From Stramenopiles sp. TOSAG23-6 (lineage: Eukaryota), in assembly GCA_900128565.1 (NCBI GenBank), contig LT635951.1, forward strand, positions 1 to 34,634: 34,634 bases of DNA. Direction: 5' to 3'. Below, one piece after another: positions 12,604 to 30,168 of the stretch. The notes under the pieces were generated by a model that was not told the DNA's origin, searched no databases, and was given only the letters and a program-made list of their open reading frames with translations. Positions within the stretch are counted from its first letter, which is position 1. Every line of letters begins with the position of its first letter. The position numbers and the translations under genes were made by a program.

Positions 12604-13212
12604 TTACCAGGGATTGTAATCGTCATCGATATCATAAGCAAGAGCTTCTACCTGAGCTACTGGTAGTTCCATATTTTTATTGGTCGCTTTTGATTTAGTT
12701 TTCATGGGTCCTGGTTTTCCATTAGATAGATACAACACATCTAAAAGTAAAACACCAATTTCAATAATTGTAACAAAAATAAGCATGACAATCCCAGAAC
12801 CAGGCTTGATAGATGCTTCTTTATGTAATATAGATTTAATAGAAGATACGTTATCAAACCAGTTTGCCCACGCAATTAAACTGAAGAGAGCGCTTCCAAA
12901 TAGTGACAGTCTCCAATAAGCAAATAATTCACTGAAAATTTTTCCAGCTGGTAAGAAAAGGAGAAGTACCAAAGTTAGTATTAACACCAAGAATGACAAA
13001 ATCGTAAAAGCGAGATAAGTTCTTCCATAATCATGAGAAAGTTCTCCAATTTTGTTCCAAGTCAAAGATGATTCAAGGCGGCCAAGCTTGACATTCCCAA
13101 GTGTTCCGTTGCACAAGGAAGCGAAGTGTAAGACAAACACACCAAGAAGAATGATATTACAAATCAAGTTTTCTCGAAAATTTCGGAATGGATCTTTACA
13201 ATTGATCATCAT
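12604..13212 (-). CDS. hypothetical four-pass membrane protein (claudin/tetraspan-like topology), 202 aa
   Basis: ATG-initiated ORF with four hydrophobic segments and a charged C-terminal tail. No family recognised with certainty. Confidence 0.7.
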   Translation of the reverse strand: MMINCKDPFRNFRENLICNIILLGVFVLHFASLCNGTLGNVKLGRLESSLTWNKIGELSHDYGRTYLAFTILSFLVLILTLVLLLFLPAGKIFSELFAYWRLSLFGSALFSLIAWANWFDNVSSIKSILHKEASIKPGSGIVMLIFVTIIEIGVLLLDVLYLSNGKPGPMKTKSKATNKNMELPVAQVEALAYDIDDDYNPW

Positions 13213-13348
13213 TATTAGAGAAGAAAGTGTATAGCTGGACTGTTCAAGTTTCGAACAACTTGTTTCACAATATTACAAACAAACACTACCTATACTGTAG
13301 TACATTACAAGTTTGCGCTGAATTCAAAATTTTTTAACGAGAGTACGG

Positions 13349-13358
13349 GTACCGGGTA
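13349..13358 (-). promoter_or_regulatory. TACCCGGTAC candidate promoter element (copy 2)
   Basis: GTACCGGGTA on the plus strand, between divergent ATGs at 13212 (-) and 13436 (+). Confidence 0.55.
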
Positions 13359-13435
13359 TCATTGAAATTCAAAAAAAATTGTATTCAAACAATGATTTCG
13401 ATTCTAATCTCAAATCAAAAAAGATCTTTTACAGT

Positions 13436-15692
13436 ATGGAACGATGGAATGAAAAGTGGGACAATTTACAGACTAGTTCGGACGAAGACGAACGAAGTAG
13501 CGCAGATGTAAGCAAAAATTCATTTGATAGAAAAAAGAGAGATGTTGTTTCCAGAGATAGTGTAAAGTCGTACGAACCCAGATTGAATTCGTTTGACTTG
13601 ATGAGACAAGCTATTGTTGGTGACGCTCACTCGGAAGCGCAATTGCGCACGCTAGGAAACAAATCTTTTAAAGATGGTGCAACGGCTAAAGCCGAAGGCT
13701 ATTATTCACAGGCGATTGAAAAAGCTTTGAAAAGAAGGGAAAAAAAAGTGTCTGAAAAACCAAAAATTCCTTTAGTGATGCCGTCCAACCTGGAAAGCGT
13801 AAATCCAGAGACTAGAGCTGCACTGGAGTCACTCGAAGAAGAGTTAATTGAAATAGAAAAATCTAAACTAGACCCAAACGAAACAATTCAGAAATTGTAT
13901 AATAATAGATCTATCGTACGTTATAAATTAGGAAAATTTGCAAAGTCTGTTAGGGATGCTCGAGCTGCGTCAAATATTCAAAAAGACTGGGTAAAAGCAT
14001 ATTGGAGAGAGGCGTTGGCTAGCTCTGCACTTGAACGTTATGATGATGCCATCAAAGCTTATAAAAAAGCTCTTAAATATGATCCTGGTAGTATTCGTTT
14101 AAAGAAAGAGCTTGAGTCTACTATATTTAAAAAATTCCGTAAAAGTACAAAGAAAAGTAAACAAATTAGTAGACAAAATTTGAAAGTTTTACGTCATAAT
14201 TCAACAGAAAAAGTTATCAATAAAAAGAGTCATAATAAAAATACTGACGAAACAAATGATATTAATGAAATAACAGATAATACGAATAAAATTCGTAAGA
14301 AAGCTCGTGACGAAGCAGCTAACGTATTGCTCGAAGCAATTAACGAAAAAGCAAGTGAGGAGGAAGCAGATAAAAAAGCTGCTAAAGATCTCGAAATACG
14401 CCAATCTCTTCTTTTACAAAAGATAGCAAGAGAAAAGCAAGATTCAAGTAACATGAAAAATGATGCAAGCATATCCGGATTACGGAAAGGTTTTTTGAAT
14501 CGATTGGACTCTGCTCAAAATGGTCAAAATTGTGAAAAAGTAGATACCTATAAGAATAGTAAAAAAAAATTGTTAGGTACGAAATGTCCTACGAAAAAAA
14601 AAAGTGAAAACAAACCAGTAAAAATGTTACTGCACCCACAAATACCAGTATCGAAAAATACAATAGAATTATTAGATATTATATCTGCTTTGGCATGGGC
14701 ACCCAAGGGAGGTACAAATATTGCCGGTGCTGCCGCTGCTTTATGCCATCAAGTAGTCCGCAAGGAAAAAGTATGTTTTCATGATTTCAATTTTGAATTT
14801 ATTTATCTTCATTGAAAATTTCGTACCTAACAAAAAAAAATACAAAAAAAAAATATTTTTTACAATACAACGTGGAAAGCAGTTTTTTCTTTATTTAGCA
14901 TATGATCACGGTAATCAAGTTGTTAAACCTGAAGAGTATGATTTAACTGCAAAATCTCCACGTGCAAGCCAAGTCTTATTTTGTCGTGTTTTATCAATGT
15001 ATGATGGAAATGCTGTAAATACAGCAGCATTATTAGCTTTGCATTCATTGTTATATCATTCAGTAGAAAAAAATACGAAAAAAGTAAACATGCCGGTTCG
15101 ACTTCTGCATCGTGGTAAAGAAGTAGTTGACTATGGGCTTTGTTGTGGTTATCTGAAAGGTATTGAACAACTTGTTCTTGTTTCTTCTTGGGAGGGAATC
15201 CCTGAATCTAAATGGGAAATGGAGAAACAAAATCTTGAACAACACGAGTGGATTTATTTCCGTCTCAATTCAGGACAAATTTATTTTTTAGATTTTTCAG
15301 CTGAACAGTTTGGTGAAACTCCTCTTTTGATTCCCCATGCGAAGAATGTTGATGATTTTGTACATTGCATTTCATCCGCAAATAAATTTGCACCAGCAGG
15401 CGCACCTGCTAATATTTCAGTGCCTATTTTGTTTTGTAAAGCGGAAGCTGCAAAAGTTAGGTATGAAATTGAGAGAAATATTGATAAAACAGCCATAGCA
15501 ATGAGAGTAAGAATAGCTGAAAATGCGAGCGAAGATTCGCTACAAATTAAAGTAGAAAAAAATATGAATCTTGAGGAAGAAGTGAAACTTGCAAGGAAGA
15601 TGTCTGCAGTGCATATTATTAAGTTATTTTTACAGTCATTTAAGCCAAAATTGATTCAATCCTTTCCATATATTCATAAAAGCATTAATTAG
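13436..15692 (+). CDS. TPR-repeat protein with an uncharacterised C-terminal domain; join(13436-14770,14871-15692), about 718 aa
   Basis: Co-chaperone-type TPRs (LRTLGNKSFKDG...AEGYYSQAI; LYNNRSIVRYKLG; WVKAYWREALASSALERYDDAIKAYKKALKYDP) and N-terminal KWDNLQTSSDED. The two ORFs join in frame after removing element copy 3. Confidence 0.85.
14525..14630 (-). mobile_element. degenerate antisense copy of the intron element inside the TPR coding exon
   Basis: Reverse complement: GTAACATTTTT...TTTTTTCGTAGGACATTTCGTACCTAACAATTTTTTTTT...TTTTTCACAAT, which matches the family core. The plus-strand ORF reads through it. Ends are approximate. Confidence 0.75.
14771..14870 (+). other. non-canonical intron / introner-like element, copy 3 (100 nt, GT...AA)
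   Basis: aaa|GTATGT...GAAAATTTCGTACCTAAC...TACAATAC-AA|cgt. The frame change matches. In-frame AGs at 14879 and 14882 are possible alternative acceptors. Confidence 0.78.
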
Positions 15693-15780
15693 TTGTTCAT
15701 AAAAACATTAATTAGTTATTTTTTAACGATATTCATTTATTTAAAACAAAAGTGTGTACAACATTGTCGACATATTGTAA

Positions 15781-16347
15781 CTAAAGCCACCATGGTGCTG
15801 GCGGAAGAATAAACCAAGGTGTTCGCATATAGTCAATCAACACTTCTTCACCAGGTTGGAGCGACTTTATTGTATATATCGAGAAACCATTAGATGTAAG
15901 TGAACCCACAAGAATACTATTTGCAACTCGTTTATGATTGATTTTCCGACCCAAGTCAGTCATCACAGGATTTGAATATAGGTACCAAGGTTCAAGAAGT
16001 AAAGAGTTAGTTGTTGATAATGATACTGCCTCAAAGAGACAAACACCTGCATCTGAGAAATCAGTCACAAAAACACCATTTCCATGAATATTACTTGGTG
16101 CAACTTTCAGTCCAGAAATGTCACGACAACTTGGATAGACTGGTGTGCTACACTGCCAATAAAAATGCTTTGTAATAGCCAAAAACATAAATAATCGTGA
16201 TACCCACACANTAATTGCACAAAAAAACATTGATATCGACAATACAAAAGACGACTTCTTTATGTGCAAATAAGACGCTATAGTATCATGAGATAAATAG
16301 TAGAAAACATGGGATAGTGCAATAGCCCAGCACAATAGAATCATCAT
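15781..16347 (-). CDS. small SET-domain protein with a hydrophobic N-terminus
   Basis: GLKVAPSNIHGNGVFV...GRKINHKRVANS...IKSLQPGEEVLIDY are SET motifs. The first ATG is at 16347; the true start is uncertain. Confidence 0.8.
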   Translation of the reverse strand: MMILLCWAIALSHVFYYLSHDTIASYLHIKKSSFVLSISMFFCAIXVWVSRLFMFLAITKHFYWQCSTPVYPSCRDISGLKVAPSNIHGNGVFVTDFSDAGVCLFEAVSLSTTNSLLLEPWYLYSNPVMTDLGRKINHKRVANSILVGSLTSNGFSIYTIKSLQPGEEVLIDYMRTPWFILPPAPWWL

Positions 16348-16937
16348 TATTCTAGCTCGGCATTTTGGTGAGTTTCTCAGTTGGTATATTAAGTCACTCA
16401 AAAGTTAGCTCTCGCGAAATTGTATTGACGGAAAGTGCGCGGAGAGAATGTTCTTAAAGCTATAATACTAATTCATATGAATGTGGATTCGCTGTGGATG
16501 GATTCTTTGTTTATGAGTGACTTAGAGTGAGTGATTTTCGATTTCGATTTTGATCAAGTCAAGATGAAGAGAGATCCGTTACGATGACTCGGCCAGCCCA
16601 GCGCCAGGTAGTGTCAAAAATTTAGGAACATCATCATGATTCATGAATCATGACTGTTGTTGTTGTTTTAAATATCAGTTAGTTCATAAAAAATATAGGT
16701 AGTATATCTAAACGCTGTCATAGAGAAACATATTTTAACTTCATTAAAACCAATTGTCATTTCATCAAAGACAAGTAATTTCTGCTTTAATTTGTGGATA
16801 CTTTTAGTTTTCTTTCTTCACACGAGATAGTATCAAACATCACTCATTCGTCGCTGACTTTTAACTTGGATAGTATATTTCACTAAGTGGTTGTTTTCCC
16901 ACATCAACTTGCCACAGGACTAAAAATATAATCTAGT

Positions 16938-18484
16938 ATGCAACTTGTTTATATAGTATGTGTATTTTATGCTACTGTCTCTACGATACAAACAGTTCAT
17001 GCGATGAGATGGGTTTTAAAAAAGTCATTAAAGTTAAAGTGTGAAAGAGTGGGAATCCAAGGTGACAACAATTTTCGAAGTTGTTCAGCTTGTGCTAAAA
17101 ATTATGGATGCGGTTGGTGTGAAGTGGGTACAATATTTAATGGCAATCCTCTTGGTTCAAGTAAAATTTTTCCTAATAAGCATCAGTGTATTTCTCTAAA
17201 AGATGAATGTATCGGAACTCTATTTCACCGGGGACTCTGTCATGAACCACGAAAAATAAGACGTGAAAAGTGGTTGGAAGTAAGTGAAACCAACCGTCGA
17301 ATCAACGGAGATGAAAAGTATCGCAACTACTTGGATGTATGGGAAATTGAAAAGATAAGTGAAGCACAAATATCACGAGATACATCACGTTCAGGTGTTA
17401 AAGGTAACCAAATAATCAATTTAGGAAATGTTTTGAAAGCATATGCTGTATATGATAAAGAAGTCAAATATCAACAAGGAATGTATGCTTTCATCATTTT
17501 TAAAATTTAAAATTTTAATTTGTTTTTCATCGAAAATTTCATACCTAATTAATTTCAAACTTTAAGACATATGTTTTCACAATATATGTATGTTTTATTT
17601 TTTTTCAATTTCGATTGTTTTTTCGTACGAAATTTTGTACCTAACAATTTTTTTTTTGAAATATTTTTCACAATATATGAATCTAATAGCAGGAATGTTT
17701 TTGAAACTGAATATGAATGAAGAAGAAGCATTTTGGATGCTTGTGTCTGTGATGCAAAATGATAAGTATTATCTTAAAAATTTGTTTCTCAATGACCCTA
17801 AAAAAATGACACACAGATTGTATATTTTTATCATCAATTCCGAATTTATTTTTTTTCGAACTCAAAAGGTTTCGCATCTAACATTTGTTTTCTAAAAATA
17901 TTTTTCCACAATATTTAAATGATATAAATAAAATGTTAAATTTTGTCAGGAGAGAATTTTTACATAATTTTATTGATCCTGTACATCATGAAACGTTGGA
18001 AAAAAATCATGACGAGTTAATGTACGTTTTCACCATTAATTTCAAATTTATTTGTTTTACTAAGAAAATTTCGTACCTAACGATGTTTTTACTAAAAAAC
18101 AAAAATATTTTTTCACAAAACATGATGTTGGAACAGTCTAGATGTATCCAATGGATGGAAAGTGTATTTATTGTATCTTTTAGAACATATTTATTACATC
18201 ATATATGGGATTTTCTACTCACTGATGATGAGAATACTATGGAGCATAACTTATTGCTAGTTATTGGATCCTTCTATCATCTCGCCCTGAAGCATTCCTT
18301 TGAAAAATTTCATAATATAACACCTGACCAAGTTGAACAGGTAATGTCCACTTGGATACCTAATCAAGTTACTTTGGAACAACTGAATGAAGCTTTGTAT
18401 GAAAGAAAATCAACGTATATACAAGTTACAGAAACTAATATTATTGCAGAAGCTGAAACAAAGTCTGACATTGAGAGATATTGA
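16938..18484 (+). CDS. TBC-domain Rab GTPase-activating protein with an N-terminal signal-like peptide and Cys-rich PSI-like module; join(16938-17482,17679-17819,17917-18021,18124-18484), about 383 aa
   Basis: ISRDTSR (IxxDxxR), NVLKAYAVYDKEVKYQQG|MNLIAGMFL, EEEAFWML, QWMESVF, HIWDFLL; CSACAKNYGCGWC. Exon lengths sum to a multiple of three after removing four elements. Confidence 0.88.
17483..17587 (+). other. non-canonical intron / introner-like element, copy 4 (105 nt, GT...AT)
   Basis: ggaat|GTATGC...GAAAATTTCATACCTAAT...CACAATAT-AT|, followed immediately by copy 5. Confidence 0.85.
17588..17678 (+). other. non-canonical intron / introner-like element, copy 5 (91 nt, GT...AT)
   Basis: at|GTATGT...CGTACGAAATTTTGTACCTAAC...CACAATAT-AT|gaat. 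Removing copies 4 and 5 rebuilds the ATG of YQQGMN. Confidence 0.88.
17820..17916 (+). other. non-canonical intron / introner-like element, copy 6 (97 nt, GT...TT)
   Basis: agatt|GTATAT...GGTTTCGCATCTAAC...CCACAATAT-TT|aaat gives HRLNDINKML in frame. An in-frame AG at 17949 would delete 11 residues of a TBC helix. Confidence 0.8.
18022..18123 (+). other. non-canonical intron / introner-like element, copy 7 (102 nt, GT...AT)
   Basis: ttaat|GTACGT...GAAAATTTCGTACCTAAC...CACAAAAC-AT|gatg. Length is 3n with no in-frame stop. Confidence 0.8.
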
Positions 18485-18782
18485 ACTTTTAAGCAACATA
18501 ATCAATAATTTATATGAGCTGCTCCTTTGGTATATGTTCCGTTGGAGTTTTAATAATACTTACAAAAATTAAATTGCTATATGCCATCGCCAGATAGATT
18601 CACTAACTGTTCACAGTCATAGCGAAACTTTTGAGTTCTAACGCTTAAATAAGTTCAAAATTTACATGAAAATAAAATATGTCGATATCCAGATATTTTT
18701 TTATCTTCTCTTTATTAGATACATCAAGCGATACCATGATGGATCCTTTACTCTACATTTTTTTCGTTCAATAAAATACCTC

Positions 18783-19262
18783 TTAATAACCGTCTCCACT
18801 TGAATAGCCACCGCCTCCACCATAATAGCCACCGCCCCCACTTGAACCACCATAATAGCCACCGCCTCCACTTGAACCACCGTAATAGCCACCGCCTCCA
18901 TTTGAACCACCGTAATAGCCACCGCCTCCACTAGAACCACTGTAATAGCCACCGCCTCCACTTGAACCACCATAATAGCCACCGCCTCCACTTGAATCTC
19001 CGTTGTAGCCACCATTTCCACTTGAACTATGACCCTTGCTCCCACTTGATCCATTGTTTCCAATAGAACCTCCGGAGCCTTTACTTTTCCCGCAGTTTGA
19101 TGATGAATTCCAATGAGGAACCTTACCGGCGTTCATATTTCTCGCCGCAGCACTTTGAGCTCGAGCAGCAAAAGATCCTTTCTCAATTCTACCGTTTCGA
19201 GCATATTCGTTTGACATTACGCGACGTGCAGCTTCTCCGTCAAATAGATGTGGTTTAGGCAT
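18783..19262 (-). CDS. SMP (seed-maturation/LEA-like) motif protein with a Gly/Tyr/Ser-rich tail
   Basis: AARRVMSNEYARNGRIEKGSFAARAQSAAARN resembles the SMP repeat. ATG at 19262; the C-terminus is built of GGYYGGSSGG repeats. Confidence 0.8.
   Translation of the reverse strand: MPKPHLFDGEAARRVMSNEYARNGRIEKGSFAARAQSAAARNMNAGKVPHWNSSSNCGKSKGSGGSIGNNGSSGSKGHSSSGNGGYNGDSSGGGGYYGGSSGGGGYYSGSSGGGGYYGGSNGGGGYYGGSSGGGGYYGGSSGGGGYYGGGGGYSSGDGY
18817..19027 (-). repeat. coding tandem repeat, about 7 x 30 nt (GGYYGGSSGG)
   Basis: The unit CCACCATAATAGCCACCGCCTCCACTTGAA recurs every 30 nt with few substitutions. Confidence 0.95.
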
Positions 19263-19568: not shown

Positions 19569-21592
19569 TTAATTTTTAATAACATCATTCATGTTTCCTT
19601 TTACTAACGATTGAAAATCATCTACTCGTTTATTACTACCTATTAAAATTCGATTTGTCTCGGTATTTGATACATTTATATTCGTATCGTATGGCGAGAG
19701 TGAAATACTCTGAGGCCAAGAAGTAGACAGCATATATTTAACAATTTCAAATTGTATAGATTCTTGGGATTCTCCCCGAAAGGAGGCATTTGACAAATTT
19801 GAAATTACATCTGCACCAAATATCGTCCGTAACAAATCTCTATCTGAATTATATAATTTTTCCAAACTAATGTCAGAGAATGTAACATCTATACCAATAT
19901 TTACTGCAATCATACCCCATGGTTGAATTGTACTACGAGCAATTTCAAATATATTTTTATGTTTACATGGAAATTTTACATCATTTGTACCTAAAAAATA
20001 AATTGGCCACGAATCTTGGCTAAATACATCTATTAATACGGCATCAAATTTTTCTTGGGTACCATTCGCTATTCTTTTTGATGCTTTTCTTAGATATGAT
20101 AATCCATCATCATGTAATACATCTAACCCTTTTCCTTTGACTTCAAAGCAATGCTGTGCAGCCTCAATGACGGCCAGATTATGTATTTTGGAAAAATATT
20201 TCAAAATTTTTTTGTTAGGTACAGAATTTCGTACGAAAAAAAAAATCGAAATTAAAAGAAAATAAAACATTCATGCTCTACACAAGTAATATGTGCATTT
20301 GGATAATGACGTTGCAAAAATAAAGCAATTTGTCCACCTCCGATACCAAGTAATAAGAAACGCGGCGATTCACATTCATTTGATTCAAAATGAAAAGGTA
20401 AAAGAGATACCATCGTTTTCTGATACCAATTTTCTAATTTCGATCCTTTTGGATTTCGTGTATCCCATTCACTTTCACAAAAGTTGCCTTCAATGGGTGA
20501 TAAGTCAGGATTTATAGAACGGATTTTATTTGATGGTTGCTTTTGTTCTTTACGTTGAAGAGTTTCACCCCAATTCCAAACACCAAACTGAAGAACTCGA
20601 TAGTAATCACATTGTAAAACAATAACTGCTTCATTTTCTTTTGGTAATTTGTAGGTACAGTTTCCTGTATTTATTTTACCACTTGAGTAGCTAAATTGTC
20701 TATTTTTTCCAATATTAAAATATAGTATAGAAAAACCAGGAGATTTGAAATTCACTACATTTGAAAGTTGTCGCAAGGTTTCAAATTCTGCTGTGTCATA
20801 ATACCAACTTGGAATACAAATATTTTCTATACCATTTTCTATACCATTTTGTATACCATTTTCTATTCCATTTTGTATACTATTTTGTATACCATTTTCT
20901 ATACCATTTTCTATACAACCAACTTTAGTAGATTCAAATTGATCAGTTGTTGTAGATTCCACAGGAATACTCCCATATTTACCGAGTACTCGTAATGTCT
21001 CAAGTACATGATATTTTTCATACATAAAGATATCCTCTTTACTTCGCTCGTTTTGAATTAATAGTAATAAAGCTAAAACCGTATTACTTCCAACTACCTC
21101 AACCCCGGCTACAACGCCGCAAGAAAACACCAAATGATATATAGCAATAGCAGCATAAATACGAATGCAACAAGCTTCGATCATCGATATCTCAACTATA
21201 TTGGGTTGTAATTGACCGAAAGAATCAATACCAGTAGATAGAAGTACAGCCAGATGTCGCGCTGCACCAAGTTGCAAAGTTCTCTGTCCAACACTTCGAT
21301 ATGTCGCATCAACTGTAACAGTTTGAGGCACAAGTCTAAAATCGTGCTTGTGAGAAAGAACACCATTGAATGCAAAACACAAATTTCGCAAAGCTGTTAT
21401 TAAAAGCGTGGGATCACAAATCGAAAGTTGAGTGCACGCATAAGAAGCTGTACTCACACGAAACTGTGTGGTCTCGGTAATTTTCTTCCATGACTTACAC
21501 ACGCAACGTAACACTCGTGCAAGTTCCTCAGGACAAATCATACCAGGAAGCATGGTGAGAATCACTAGTGGGGTAGTTCTTTCCTTTGCCAT
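19569..21592 (-). CDS. F-box-like N-terminus fused to a class I SAM-dependent (spermidine-synthase/METTL13-like) methyltransferase domain; join(21592-20273,20180-19569), about 643 aa
   Basis: RFLLLGIGGGQIALFLQRHYPNAHITCVEH|NLAVIEAAQHCF...VLHDDGLSYL...KFDAVLIDVF...GMIAVN; N-terminal PEELARVLRCVCKSWKKI. Confidence 0.85.
20181..20272 (-). other. non-canonical intron / introner-like element, copy 8 (92 nt, GA...AT)
   Basis: Minus strand: gagcat|GAATGT...CGTACGAAATTCTGTACCTAAC...TCCAAAATAC-AT|aatctg. The frame change matches and the orientation follows the host gene. Confidence 0.85.
20822..20916 (-). repeat. coding tandem repeat, about 8 x 12 nt (IENG/IQNG)
   Basis: ATTTTCTATACC / ATTTTGTATACC units on the plus strand. 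Confidence 0.92.
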
Positions 21593-22001: not shown

Positions 22002-23116
22002 ATGCCAAACTTTGAACTTGATGATGCAGATATGTTTGCTCGTTGGTTACTTGAACAAGGCATGCATTTAACAGCCCTTGAATTGCATCAGGAGTTACTA
22101 CTTAACCACCAAGCAAGTATACCTGTGCTCGAGTCGTTCATGCGCGGAGATGTTTTGGGTGATCATTTAAGCAAAGAGGTAAGAGCTGCATCAATAGATA
22201 GTATGATATTATCCACAAATACGAGTCCCTTTGAGCACGGCGGTATAATGGATATAATCCAGACTCGCGATGATAAAATAGCGTTGTTGGAATATGAATT
22301 GAGGTGTTCGCGGGAAGACCTCTCAGCCATGCGAGGTCGTGTTCGCGCGTTTTCTGAAGCAGCTTTAGATGGCACAGAATCATATATTAATAATAGAAAG
22401 GATAATACGGTACAACAATCCACAAATTACAAAAATCCATTTAGCAAAAGTCAAATTTCTAATAAAGTTTCTTCAGACTCGAAAAATCCTTTTTCTTCAC
22501 ACAACTCAAGTCAGTCTTCTGGTCAACATAGTGCTGATAATAAAGACATGACAAGACAAGAACGTAATATTCTTAATTGTATTGTTAAAAGGTACCTCGA
22601 GAACTCAGGCTATAAATTATCGTGTCTCACTTTTAGTGAAGAAGTAAATGATCAAGATTTAGATGATTTAGAGTCTTTAGGACTTTCAAGTGGAAATCGA
22701 GCTGATCTTGTGTCTTTATATAGAGGCAGAATAGACCCAATAAGAGATGCTTTATCTCTTCAAGTAGATCTCAACAGAGAAAGAAGATTATCCGCAAAAT
22801 TAAAAGCGTCATCGACTGCAGCCATCAACGAAGCAGAAGAATCTCGAGAATTTCATGCTAAACTTAGTAAAAAATTCCAAGTTATATTAGACGAAACCTC
22901 TCAGCACAAAGAAAAAATAGCGGAAATGACTAAACAGAATGAAAATTTGAAGGAAATGATCTCTTCATTACGGGATGAGTTAGATTTGGCACGTGTATGT
23001 TTTATAATGAATTTCTAATTTAATTGTTTTTTCATACGAAATTTCGTACCTAACGATTTTTTTTGAAATATTTTTTCACAATACATGTCTTCCTCTTGAA
23101 ATTTATAAAGACTTGA
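22002..23116 (+). CDS. RELCH: RELCH/KIAA1468-like protein, LisH/coiled-coil N-terminal part only; 3' structure uncertain
   Basis: ARWLLEQGMHLTALELHQELL, DDKIALLEYELR and ERNILNCIVKRYLENSGYKLSCLTFSEEVNDQDLD match the RELCH N-terminus. Removing copy 9 by the family rule gives a stop after 9 codons; no HEAT-repeat region follows. Confidence 0.7.
22995..23086 (+). other. non-canonical intron / introner-like element, copy 9 (92 nt, flanks GT/AT mismatched)
   Basis: cgt|GTATGT...CATACGAAATTTCGTACCTAAC...CACAATAC-AT|gtc. The only copy whose flanking dinucleotides differ. Confidence 0.85.
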
Positions 23117-23451
23117 CCTTGCCCTCAACTTGGTTAAAATGGTATCAGTTATGCACGAAATCTGAAAAGGTGACTATATTGGATATGATATGGCGTGAGT
23201 GTACTGCCGAAGAGCACAATTTCATCATTGTTGATCTCCAGGCATTTTTTAGTGTAACAGGGTCTACAAAAAAATCAGTTGTTCAAAGGAAAAACATGAA
23301 ATTGAAAAATCCAAAAGTTCTTTCAAAAAAAGAAGTTATCGTGCCATGCAGCAACCCTAACCCTAATCCAAAAGTTCTTTCAAAAAAAGAAGTTATCGTG
23401 CCATGCAGCAACCCTAAGGAGAAATCTAATAAAATTAACTCAAATAGATGA
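23086..23451 (+). CDS. orphan open frame, probably the 3' exon of a gene
   Basis: The frame is open from the element end (CLPLEIYKDLTLPSTWLKWYQ...) for about 120 codons with no nearby ATG. It is out of phase with RELCH under the family rule. Confidence 0.45.
   Translation, partial: CLPLEIYKDLTLPSTWLKWYQLCTKSEKVTILDMIWRECTAEEHNFIIVDLQAFFSVTGSTKKSVVQRKNMKLKNPKVLSKKEVIVPCSNPNPNPKVLSKKEVIVPCSNPKEKSNKINSNR
23308..23417 (+). repeat. 53-nt direct duplication (period 57)
   Basis: AATCCAAAAGTTCTTTCAAAAAAAGAAGTTATCGTGCCATGCAGCAACCCTAA at 23308 and 23365. Confidence 0.92.
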
Positions 23452-28413: not shown

Positions 28414-30168
28414 ATGTCTTCTGAAGTTCAAACTCCAATCTGCTCGAATACTTCTTGTCTCCACCAGTTGGTACTTCGAGATAACAATTCAAAAGTTGAA
28501 CCAAAGATCATTCATCTTCATAGTAGTGGGAAAAGTTCATTTAAAGTAAGTTATTGTTTTCATACAAATAATCATTTTTCTCCTTCATTCTTGTTTATCT
28601 TAAACTTTTTTTTATCTTCATTTGTTGTTACTTCGATTACACTTCGTTTCTGTACCTATTTTTTCAGATAATTTGTGTAACTTAACGAAGCAAGTAATTT
28701 TAAAAAAATTCATTCAATACAGCTTGGAAGGAGTCGGTCTTCAGCTGATGTTGTCTTTAGTTCTAAAGGAGGTCCCCTAATGATTTCTAGAGTTCACGCA
28801 ATACTTTCTCGGTCTAAAGCATCTGAAAAGATTTCCGAGAATAATACTTTAATTGGCAATAGTATCAACAGTTTAAATAGTAAATCATCACTGGAAGTTT
28901 CTAAGAGTACTGTATGGTGGAAGATTGAAGATAATAATAGTAGAAATGGTATGTTTGTCAACTCTATTAAGTTAGCTGAGGCGACTCTGTCTCATGGAGA
29001 CATAGTGACTTTTGGTGGGGGAGGCACTCTCCCTTACGGTACCCATAAAAACAACATTGAATCTGATTATCAGTATGTATTTTTAAAAGTTTGCTCTAAT
29101 CAAGATGAAGATAATATATCAACAAACGAATATAAGGAAAAGAATAGCAAGAAAAATATGTTTCAAAGAAATTCTTTCCCGACAACGGGCTCTTCAAGTC
29201 GTCGGAAGCGGCCACTTACTGAAAAGATTGATCTTTCCTCGAAGCGTCCTAGACTTGATACATCATGCATTGTTTCAAATACGATGAATATACATAAAAA
29301 ACATGAAATACCAATAACGAAGGAAGGTGATAACGCGATAGCTACAGGGATTTGCGGGGATGGAGTCTCACTAAATTCACAGAAAAATGTTGATTTATCA
29401 ACTAAAAGCACTGCATTAGTTCCTTTTTCTTCTGTGCTTCCCCAAGGTACTGTCAAAGTTAATTGTTTGCAAGAAGAATTGACGTGCCCGATATGTTTGG
29501 ATTATTTACTTCAAGCTCACACCCTAGGATGTGGTCATTCACTATGTATGCTTTCAAAATTGAATTTCAAATTTTTCAAATTTATTTATTTTCGTACCAA
29601 ATTTTGTACCTAACATTATTTTTTGGAAATATTTTTCCACAATATATGTGCTCCGTGTATTGTAAAAACGCTTGAAAACAAACGAGCTTGTCCTTGTTGT
29701 CGTGCACCAACAACCAAGCCACCTATACGTTCACGTGTTCTAGATAATGCAATTAACAAATTATTGAAACAAGAAGGATGCGAGTCAAAATATTCTGAGT
29801 ACCTACACCGATTAAAAAAATGGGAAAAAGATATCAGTTTGAGAAAAGCCCAAGCAAAACAATTGAAAAGAGTTATATGTAACGCAAAGCGAGAAGGAAA
29901 GCATTTCCTCTGTATCACTGATAAATGGACAAGTAATGAACAACAAGTTTTTCAAAAAGGTGTTGCTCTTTATCATGGTGTTGCTCGAGTTGTATACTGC
30001 AACACCACAAGTTTGACAGCAGAGTATATAGAAAGTGCTTCAAAAGAAGAATTAAAGCTCGCTAGTTTAAATGTCGGTGTGGTAAATAAGAAATCAGTAT
30101 CAACCTTAGATGCATCAACAATGCGATCATTGTTACACATGTTCAGATTATATGGTGGCCGTGAATAA
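28414..30168 (+). CDS. FHA + C3HC4 RING E3 ubiquitin ligase (RNF8/CHFR-like); join(28414-28545,28723-29545,29648-30168), about 491 aa
   Basis: FHA FK|LGRS...PLMISRVHA...IEDNNSRNGMFVN...LSHGDIVTFG; RING CPICLDYLLQAHTLGCGHSL|CAPC...CPCCR is complete only after removing copy 10. Confidence 0.92.
28546..28722 (+). other. canonical GT-AG spliceosomal intron (177 nt)
   Basis: aaa|GTAAGT...TAACTTAAC...TTCAATACAG|ctt. The in-frame join restores the FHA LGR motif. Confidence 0.85.
29546..29647 (+). other. non-canonical intron / introner-like element, copy 10 (102 nt, GT...AT)
   Basis: ctat|GTATGC...CGTACCAAATTTTGTACCTAAC...CCACAATAT-AT|gtgct. It has an in-frame stop, and the first downstream AG (29686) would delete two RING cysteines. 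Confidence 0.9.

Follow-up and report, generated by a model that had tools for sequence, protein, structure and literature searches.

What becomes of an intron-like mobile element when one of its copies lies backwards inside a coding exon? The question is raised by contig LT635951.1 of Stramenopiles sp. TOSAG23-6, of which we analyzed a stretch of 34,634 nt (the window). The window is eukaryotic, gene-dense, and almost entirely genic, with the standard genetic code and long open frames on both strands. It carries a family of short introns that begin with GT and end with AT, AA, or TT. Ten intact copies (c1 to c10) run in the sense direction of their host genes, and one additional sequence, here termed the relic, lies antisense within the first exon of a gene for a TPR protein. 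A first-pass annotation had read the relic as a copy of the element that was exonized. Judged by sequence likeness, the descent of the relic from the intron family is near certain. Exonization of an antisense family copy in the TPR gene is the best explanation of the locus, and taken as a whole chain of events we consider it probable, with retention in the message as the weakest link. The features at issue are the following.

14525-14630, minus strand: relic, putative full extent (106 nt), from end-to-end alignment to the ten copies and from translation
14530-14602, minus strand: profile-supported part of the relic (nhmmer, model positions 32-94 of 98)
14570-14580, minus strand: exact GTACCTAACAA box in the relic, on the strand opposite to the mRNA
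13436-14770, plus strand: TPR gene exon 1, from Met39 of protein P0001 (MERWNEKWDNL...) to ...VVRKEK, with the relic inside
14871-15692, plus strand: TPR gene exon 2, a conserved C-terminal domain (46% identity to the orthologue P0002 over 266 amino acids, E = 7e-80)

The relic as a family copy and as coding sequence

The minus strand of 14525-14630 reads ...TTTTTTTTTCGTAGGACATTTCGTACCTAACAATTTTTTTTT...TTTTTCACAATTTTG, as the first-pass annotation had quoted it, and its likeness to the core of c5 was borne out by a 42-nt arm that is 90% complementary to c5 (17615-17656). The annotation had also proposed alignment to a family profile. We built an nhmmer profile from the ten intact copies, leaving the candidate out, and searched the window with it. 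The ten copies scored 38-58 bits, followed by the relic (14602 to 14530, minus strand only) at 23.8 bits (E = 1.2e-6); the next match scored 8.2 bits. None of 1,040 shuffles reached the score of the relic: the top scores were 13.9 bits in 40 dinucleotide shuffles of the whole window and 7.3 bits in 1,000 shuffles of 14400-14750. The family core, GTACGAAATTTCGTAC, is palindromic, and orientation is set by the flanking CCTAACAA, a run of T, and TTTTTCACAA. Because reverse complements of the true copies score no more than 7.4 bits, the palindromic core alone is insufficient for the match of the relic.

Compared with the family majority, the relic is identical at 32 of 35 positions in its middle third, at 21 of 32 in its 3' third, and at 12 of 23 in its 5' third (14603-14630). 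Its identity to single copies is 55-73% (median, 65%), being highest with c5 and lowest with c3 (55%). The intact copies share 61-84% pairwise (median, 72%), and the relic is somewhat more diverged than they are from one another. Its termini are GTAACA at the start (14630) and CACAATTTTG at the end (14525), versus GTAYGY and CACAATAY plus 2 nt in the family. The relic may be a truncated or decayed copy.

On the plus strand, the relic lies within an open frame at 13322-14815 and is translated as ...NCEKVDTYKNSKKKLLGTKCPTKKKSENKPVKMLL... Specifically, 14526-14630 (105 nt) comprise 35 open in-frame codons, and the remaining two frames have three and five stops. The annotation's description of a lysine-rich stretch, read from an element lying antisense in a plus-strand exon about 140 nt before the sense copy c3, therefore holds; the relic ends 140 nt before the start of c3 (14771). 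An open frame is not what a backwards copy ordinarily offers. Read backwards in all three frames, the ten intact copies give 30 readings, of which only 4 are open; the length is a multiple of three in 4 of the 10, and c7 alone has both properties. Since an unselected backwards copy would rarely be both open and in frame, the relic looks as if it had survived because it could be translated. The annotation's suggestion that antisense copies survive only if they keep the frame is plausible by the same counts. The sole open antisense frame of c5 is the frame of the relic, codon for codon (SKKKLLGTKFRTKKQSK versus SKKKLLGTKCPTKKKSE), and this frame of c5, YIVKNISKKKLLGTKFRTKKQSKLKKNKTY, gives nearly the same peptide as the NSKKKLLGTKCPTKKKSENKPVK of the relic.

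The relic is 54% A on the mRNA strand. No GTAYGY, CTAAC, CTAA, or TTAAC is present on the plus strand between 14440 and 14700. Neither strand of the relic region folds better than shuffled sequence (z = -0.17 and -0.41), and 14000-18300 contains no Rfam match. The host protein, P0001, has a TPR_2 match in Pfam (E = 2.7e-9), and its start is Met39 (13436) in the open frame that carries the relic; the exon 2 region matches no Pfam family. The linker around the relic (residues 271-447 of P0001) consists to 66% of K, E, N, S, D, Q, T, or R, which suggests that an insertion would be easily tolerated in a linker of such composition.

These observations can be joined in one proposal. A non-autonomous DNA element of about 100 bp (an "introner"), making a 2-bp target duplication that is mostly AT, would have inserted many times into genes. 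In a sense copy, the element's own signals, a GTAYGY start, the box GTACCTAAC, and the terminal TTTTYCACAATAY followed by the duplicated target, would direct exact removal from the pre-mRNA despite the non-AG end. One copy would have entered exon 1 of the TPR gene in reverse. As the family signals would then be absent from the mRNA, we propose that the insert stays in the message. It may have survived there because it fell into a linker, rich in Lys, Glu, Asn, and Ser, that joins the TPR part to the conserved C-terminal domain, had a length divisible by three, and could be read in the antisense frame that is most often open, in which runs of A encode lysine. The insert would now encode about 27-35 extra residues (...KNSKKKLLGTKCPTKKK...). 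Of what enters this proposal, the homology of the relic to the family, its orientation and open in-frame reading, the shorter orthologues, the sense direction of all intact copies, and the duplicated 2-nt flanks are observed; we infer the insertion event and its direction, the retention in mRNA and protein, and transposition at the DNA level.

Orthologues, transcripts, and retention of the insert

If the relic was added to the TPR gene, orthologues should be shorter at this position. A whole-library HMMER search returned 4,390 matches at E values up to 0.001; among the 150 listed, nearly all cover the TPR region only. The best match, P0002 (702 amino acids), is a full-length orthologue, with 33% identity over the N-terminal 239 residues, 53% over IELLDIISALAWAPKGG...VVRKEK, and 46% over 266 residues of the next frame. 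Word-index searches identified orthologues in 1 of 429, 2 of 2,093, and 2 of 5,102 candidates, and these were only P0002 and P0152 (774 amino acids). From the G of GFLxR to the L(L/T)DI(I/V) anchor, there are 60 residues in the window protein, 33 in P0002, and 30 in P0152, so that both orthologues are shorter by 27-30 residues in the interval that holds the relic.

Default MAFFT alignment of the three proteins misplaced the GFL anchor, and we used anchored global pairwise alignments with three gap settings instead. With P0152, a single 28-residue gap covered the 8 residues ahead of the relic and the first 20 residues of the relic itself. With P0002, the gap was divided: 13 residues fell largely inside the relic and 14 largely beyond it.

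Several points weigh against insertion and retention of the relic. First, P0002 and P0152 share 63% identity in their C-terminal parts, versus 44-46% with the window protein; being closer to each other, they count as approximately one outgroup. With one effective outgroup, the polarity of the putative insertion rests on the homology of the relic to the element, and a deletion in the orthologue lineage is formally admissible as the alternative. Second, the length of the linker is no proof of retention. Without the 35 relic codons it would have 25 residues, which is as close to the 30-33 residues of the orthologues as 60 is, and the two values bracket those of the orthologues. The annotation had expected orthologues to lack about 35 residues; both are shorter, but length cannot tell an insert that is kept (60) from one that is removed (25). 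Third, the 5' boundary of the relic at 14630 is uncertain. Default MAFFT can pair KKKSENKPVK with KRKQENKKEEVK of P0152, so that 14603-14630 may have been coding sequence before the insertion, with the inserted copy truncated at its 5' end. Fourth, the flanks of the relic do not match (CA before it and TG at its end), unlike those of 9 of the 10 intact copies. Fifth, the antisense copy is a single case (n = 1), as the next off-family match (8.2 bits) is within the range of the shuffles. That match, at 19936-20005 on the plus strand in an exon of a minus-strand methyltransferase-like gene, was considered as a second antisense relic and rejected (E = 0.09; shuffle maximum, 13.9 bits). Finally, no listed transcript contig bridges the relic, as described next.

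We compared 13000-18700 with four polyA metatranscriptome runs (X6, X7, X10, and X11), for which 20 matching pieces are listed and 812 further pieces exist. Among the pieces listed, gene-specific contigs cover 13408-13542, 13610-13875, 14869-15042, and 15446-15662, and none bridges 14525-14630 with unique flanks. The listed piece that overlies the relic (14561-14603) contains the family core only, differs at four other letters, and likely comes from another locus. The transcript check proposed by the annotation thus showed neither retention nor removal. Likewise, no contig joint cleanly crosses a family copy among the pieces listed.

Family cores are abundant in the polyA libraries, with a summed contig depth in the bin 17584-17774 of 589 in X10 and 16,415 in X11. 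The elements, or DNA carrying them, are plentiful in these two libraries, where DNA carry-over is possible. The depths bear on excision of the ciliate type, in which internal eliminated sequences are removed from DNA independently of orientation and are predicted to be absent from RNA; the same possibility of carry-over applies to this comparison.

It is possible, then, that the relic is derived from the family and yet is absent from the mature message, either through unrecognized splicing of the plus strand or through orientation-blind excision of DNA, leaving a linker of 25 residues. Excision of the 105 nt would preserve the frame (1,204 nt open upstream and 182 nt downstream), the 25 residues left are near the 30 and 33 of the orthologues, and the retained segment is seen in no RNA contig listed. 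We nevertheless regard removal as unlikely. The plus strand has no family 5' site, branch box, or pyrimidine tract, the ends of the relic are degenerate (GTAACA and ...AATTTTG), and, counted by copy and frame, an unselected antisense copy would have a chance of only about 1 in 30 of being both open and divisible by three, a combination that c7 alone shows. The annotation had suggested from the relic that removal of the element is strand specific and acts on RNA. Absence of splice signals from the mRNA strand and the open frame speak for this, but it is on these that the suggestion rests, not on RNA.

The intron family and the origin of its antisense copy

The 11-mer GTACCTAACAA, which is the branch-like box of the family, occurs 10 times in the window with at most one mismatch, versus 0.73 expected, and 0 of 100 shuffles reached 10. 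From repeats and flanks we delimited ten intact copies of 91-105 nt, which can be aligned end to end.

c1: 2994-3087, plus strand, sense
c2: 3182-3286, plus strand, sense
c3: 14771-14870, plus strand, sense; starts with GT and ends with AA, with AA also before the GT
c4: 17483-17587, plus strand, sense; directly abuts c5
c5: 17588-17678, plus strand, sense; "copy 5" of the first-pass annotation and closest to the relic (73% identity)
c6: 17820-17916, plus strand, sense; ends with TT, with TT before the GT
c7: 18022-18123, plus strand, sense
c8: 20181-20272, minus strand, sense in a minus-strand gene; starts with GA in the GT..AT register
c9: 22995-23086, plus strand, sense; the sole copy with differing 2-nt flanks (GT versus AT)
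c10: 29546-29647, plus strand, sense; interrupts a RING-finger-like Cys/His pattern

Exact excision of each copy gives a long open frame on the copy's own strand and not on the opposite strand, which makes all ten sense to their host genes. After excision, the open sequence on either side amounts to 1,449 and 819 nt for c3, 1,344 and 609 nt for c8, and 865 and 518 nt for c10; for c9, just 27 nt are open downstream. Copies c4 and c5 stand in tandem with no exon between them (...CACAATATAT/GTATGT..., the slash marking the junction), and the frame opens only if both are removed (551 and 214 nt). At its start, c8 reads GAATGT rather than GTATGT, and shifting the register by 2 nt gives AT..AC. In c10, the pattern ...LGCGHSL/CAPC...CPCC is retained only by exact GT..AT removal; splicing to the next AG would lose a Cys pair.

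Nine of the 10 copies end with the same dinucleotide that stands directly before their GT; it is AT in seven of them, AA in c3, and TT in c6. The acceptor dinucleotide thus tracks the duplicated target rather than being a fixed AT. A 2-bp target duplication predicts just such covariation between the end of the intron and the exon before it, and a fixed acceptor motif would not produce it. By the profile census at E < 0.01, the window holds ten sense copies in genes, one antisense copy in an exon, and no intergenic copies; few of the latter are expected, as nearly all of the window is genic.

Outside the window, a metagenome scan with an 18-nt degenerate core pattern found at least 116 loci. 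Among the matches listed there was one full family copy (L083, 35.9 bits, on an independent contig), which has AT before its GT and AT at its end and runs in the sense direction of a frame that is open for 250 and 140 nt. A second locus (L025) was a weak partial match (17.6 bits, E = 6.7e-4). The other loci with the core pattern, for example in gut metagenomes, look like chance matches to a poorly chosen pattern. A stricter two-box pattern found no loci in viral_contigs and one in genome_contigs, in a bacterial metagenome-assembled genome.

The copy nearest to the relic, c3, allows exact removal to be compared with orthologues. The window protein reads VVRKEK/RGKQFFLYL across the junction, and the orthologues read VVKKER/RGREFRLFL and VVRKERRGGRDLLLFL. 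Alignment of these junctions places the c3 intron exactly at 14771-14870, from GT to AA. Two in-frame AGs located 9 and 12 nt downstream of the end of c3 are skipped, and an AG at 14898 is out of frame. A 185-nt contig from the polyA libraries matches 14869-15042 without a difference, its first 11 letters being placed elsewhere. A match starting at 14869 fits a spliced message because exon 1 also ends in AA, and we take this contig as a hint consistent with a spliced c3 message.

The relic and c3 can also pair. A 16-nt segment of the relic, UUGUUAGGUACGAAAU (14570-14585), is perfectly complementary to the branch-box region of c3 (14818-14833), and the predicted fold of 14515-14880 pairs the two (-72.3 kcal/mol, z = -3.2; 1 of 100 shuffles as good). 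Conceivably, the relic might serve as an antisense regulator that masks the branch box and 3' box of c3 and tunes its non-AG splicing, besides donating a lysine-rich peptide that resembles a nuclear-localization signal. Such a regulator would stem from two opposite insertions of one element; this role is distinctly unlikely.

Three further origins for the relic bear on how the family spreads. One is inversion in situ of a former sense intron at this place, or transfer from another copy through gene conversion or template switching, in place of a fresh antisense insertion. Family termini are inverted (GTAT...ATAC), the predicted fold of c5 has its ends paired (z = -2.59; 3 of 200 shuffles as good), and a second copy lies just 140 nt away. 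The inverted termini span only about 4 nt, however, c3 does not fold with paired ends (z = 0.33), the relic is least like its neighbor c3, and the orthologues mark no intron position here. Such an origin appears improbable.

The second is spread by reverse splicing and reverse transcription, in which case the relic would have entered by way of an antisense TPR transcript. This mode predicts sense copies, and 10 of 10 intact copies are sense. Yet it does not yield the covarying 2-nt flanks (AA/AA and TT/TT; 9 of 10 copies), and there is no minus-strand gene at the relic, so we hold it to be very improbable. The annotation had argued that the antisense relic itself favors a mechanism at the DNA level over reverse splicing. 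The duplicated flanks point in that direction, but one antisense copy alone would leave reverse splicing into an antisense transcript possible. Its broader claim, that the element inserts in both orientations, was likewise upheld in part: there is one antisense copy and the 2-nt flanks (9 of 10) back insertion at the DNA level, but a general rule would rest on n = 1.

Third, the relic could be a working sense intron of an overlapping minus-strand gene or noncoding RNA, an arrangement that the annotation had named as telling against its reading. The box GTACCTAACAA is exact and TTTTTCACAAT is retained on the minus strand. Nonetheless, after removal just 118 and 140 nt are open there, the 5' end is GTAACA instead of GTAYGY, the plus strand is the conserved coding strand, and the region lacks any Rfam match; we consider this highly improbable. 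A chance likeness between an A-rich, Lys-coding stretch and a T-rich repeat, which a high composition bias (18.7 bits) and the palindromic core might favor, is hardly credible given the E value, the shuffles, the 42-nt arm, and the low scores of reverse complements reported above.

Relation to known introners

Introners are transposon-derived intron families whose target duplications supply one splice end (10.1101/2022.06.06.494994; PMC11282704). In some of the classes described, only one orientation yields an intron, in others both do, and families with non-AG ends are described in Fritillaria and Amoebophrya (10.1101/2020.10.14.339549; PMC11282704). Like the introners of Micromonas, Aureococcus, and many aquatic eukaryotes, the family in the window consists of many look-alike short introns in unrelated genes, with short duplicated flanks that serve as a splice end and, as the orthologue junctions suggest for c3, with exact removal that would leave the mRNA unchanged (10.1101/2022.06.06.494994; PMC11282704). 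It differs in its usual 3' end, which is not AG but AT, or else AA or TT where the target has these letters. The relic differs again, in being no intron at all; it is a copy in the non-splicing orientation inside coding sequence.

Two further systems can be compared. In Polarella glacialis, some introner-like classes create introns in a single orientation and have one splice site internal and the other from the target duplication, as in the window (10.1101/2020.10.14.339549). Other classes there splice in either orientation, whereas here 10 of 10 intact copies are sense and the antisense copy is without splice signals on the mRNA strand. The introns of the tunicate Fritillaria borealis resemble miniature inverted-repeat transposable elements and, as in the window, have non-AG ends and are still removed (PMC11282704). 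They are AG-AC and AG-AT, in contrast to the GT-AT introns with a normal-looking GTAYGY described here, a comparison made by description only. In the open full-text literature, as far as its text was available, we came across no description of an introner that lies in the wrong orientation and is kept as coding sequence, nor of any GT-AT family; subscription papers lie outside this scope.

Exonization of transposable elements is familiar from antisense Alu copies and from pieces of plant miniature inverted-repeat elements in coding exons, where an element copy in the mature coding sequence adds residues. Classical exonization makes a new exon from an intronic element through cryptic splice sites. 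In the TPR gene, by contrast, the element seemingly landed directly in an exon and was read through. The relic is a useful side-proof for the family and not a new system.

The introns of this family bear on the choice of 3' ends and on how introns spread, and the single backwards copy is a natural control for the splicing system of the family. Judging from the relic, the element could enter a gene in either direction, a prediction of DNA transposition; spread by the spliceosome predicts sense copies only. Given short inverted ends and a duplicated target, a family-type copy that lies backwards would likewise have GT and AT at its two ends, judging from the family termini, those of the relic being lost. 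Terminal letters would then be insufficient for recognition, which would have to rest on strand-specific internal boxes. If the exonization of the relic is true, introner insertions are able to add protein sequence and not introns alone.

The window has other repetitive features. Just after c9, at 23308-23417, there is an exact direct duplication of 53 nt with a spacing of 57 nt. The gene that carries c8 also contains a tandem array of 12-nt units (20810-20938), whose minus-strand translation is NGIENGIQNSIQNGIENGIQNGIENGIEN. At least seven tandem 30-nt units lie in minus-strand frames at 18787-19056 and probably encode a Gly/Tyr/Ser-rich repeat protein. Meanwhile, the minus strand of 5572-12096 holds an open frame of 2,174 codons without a family copy; its translation abounds in basic, Trp/Arg-rich repeats and has paired Cys/His stretches and a stretch of the DxDxDG type.

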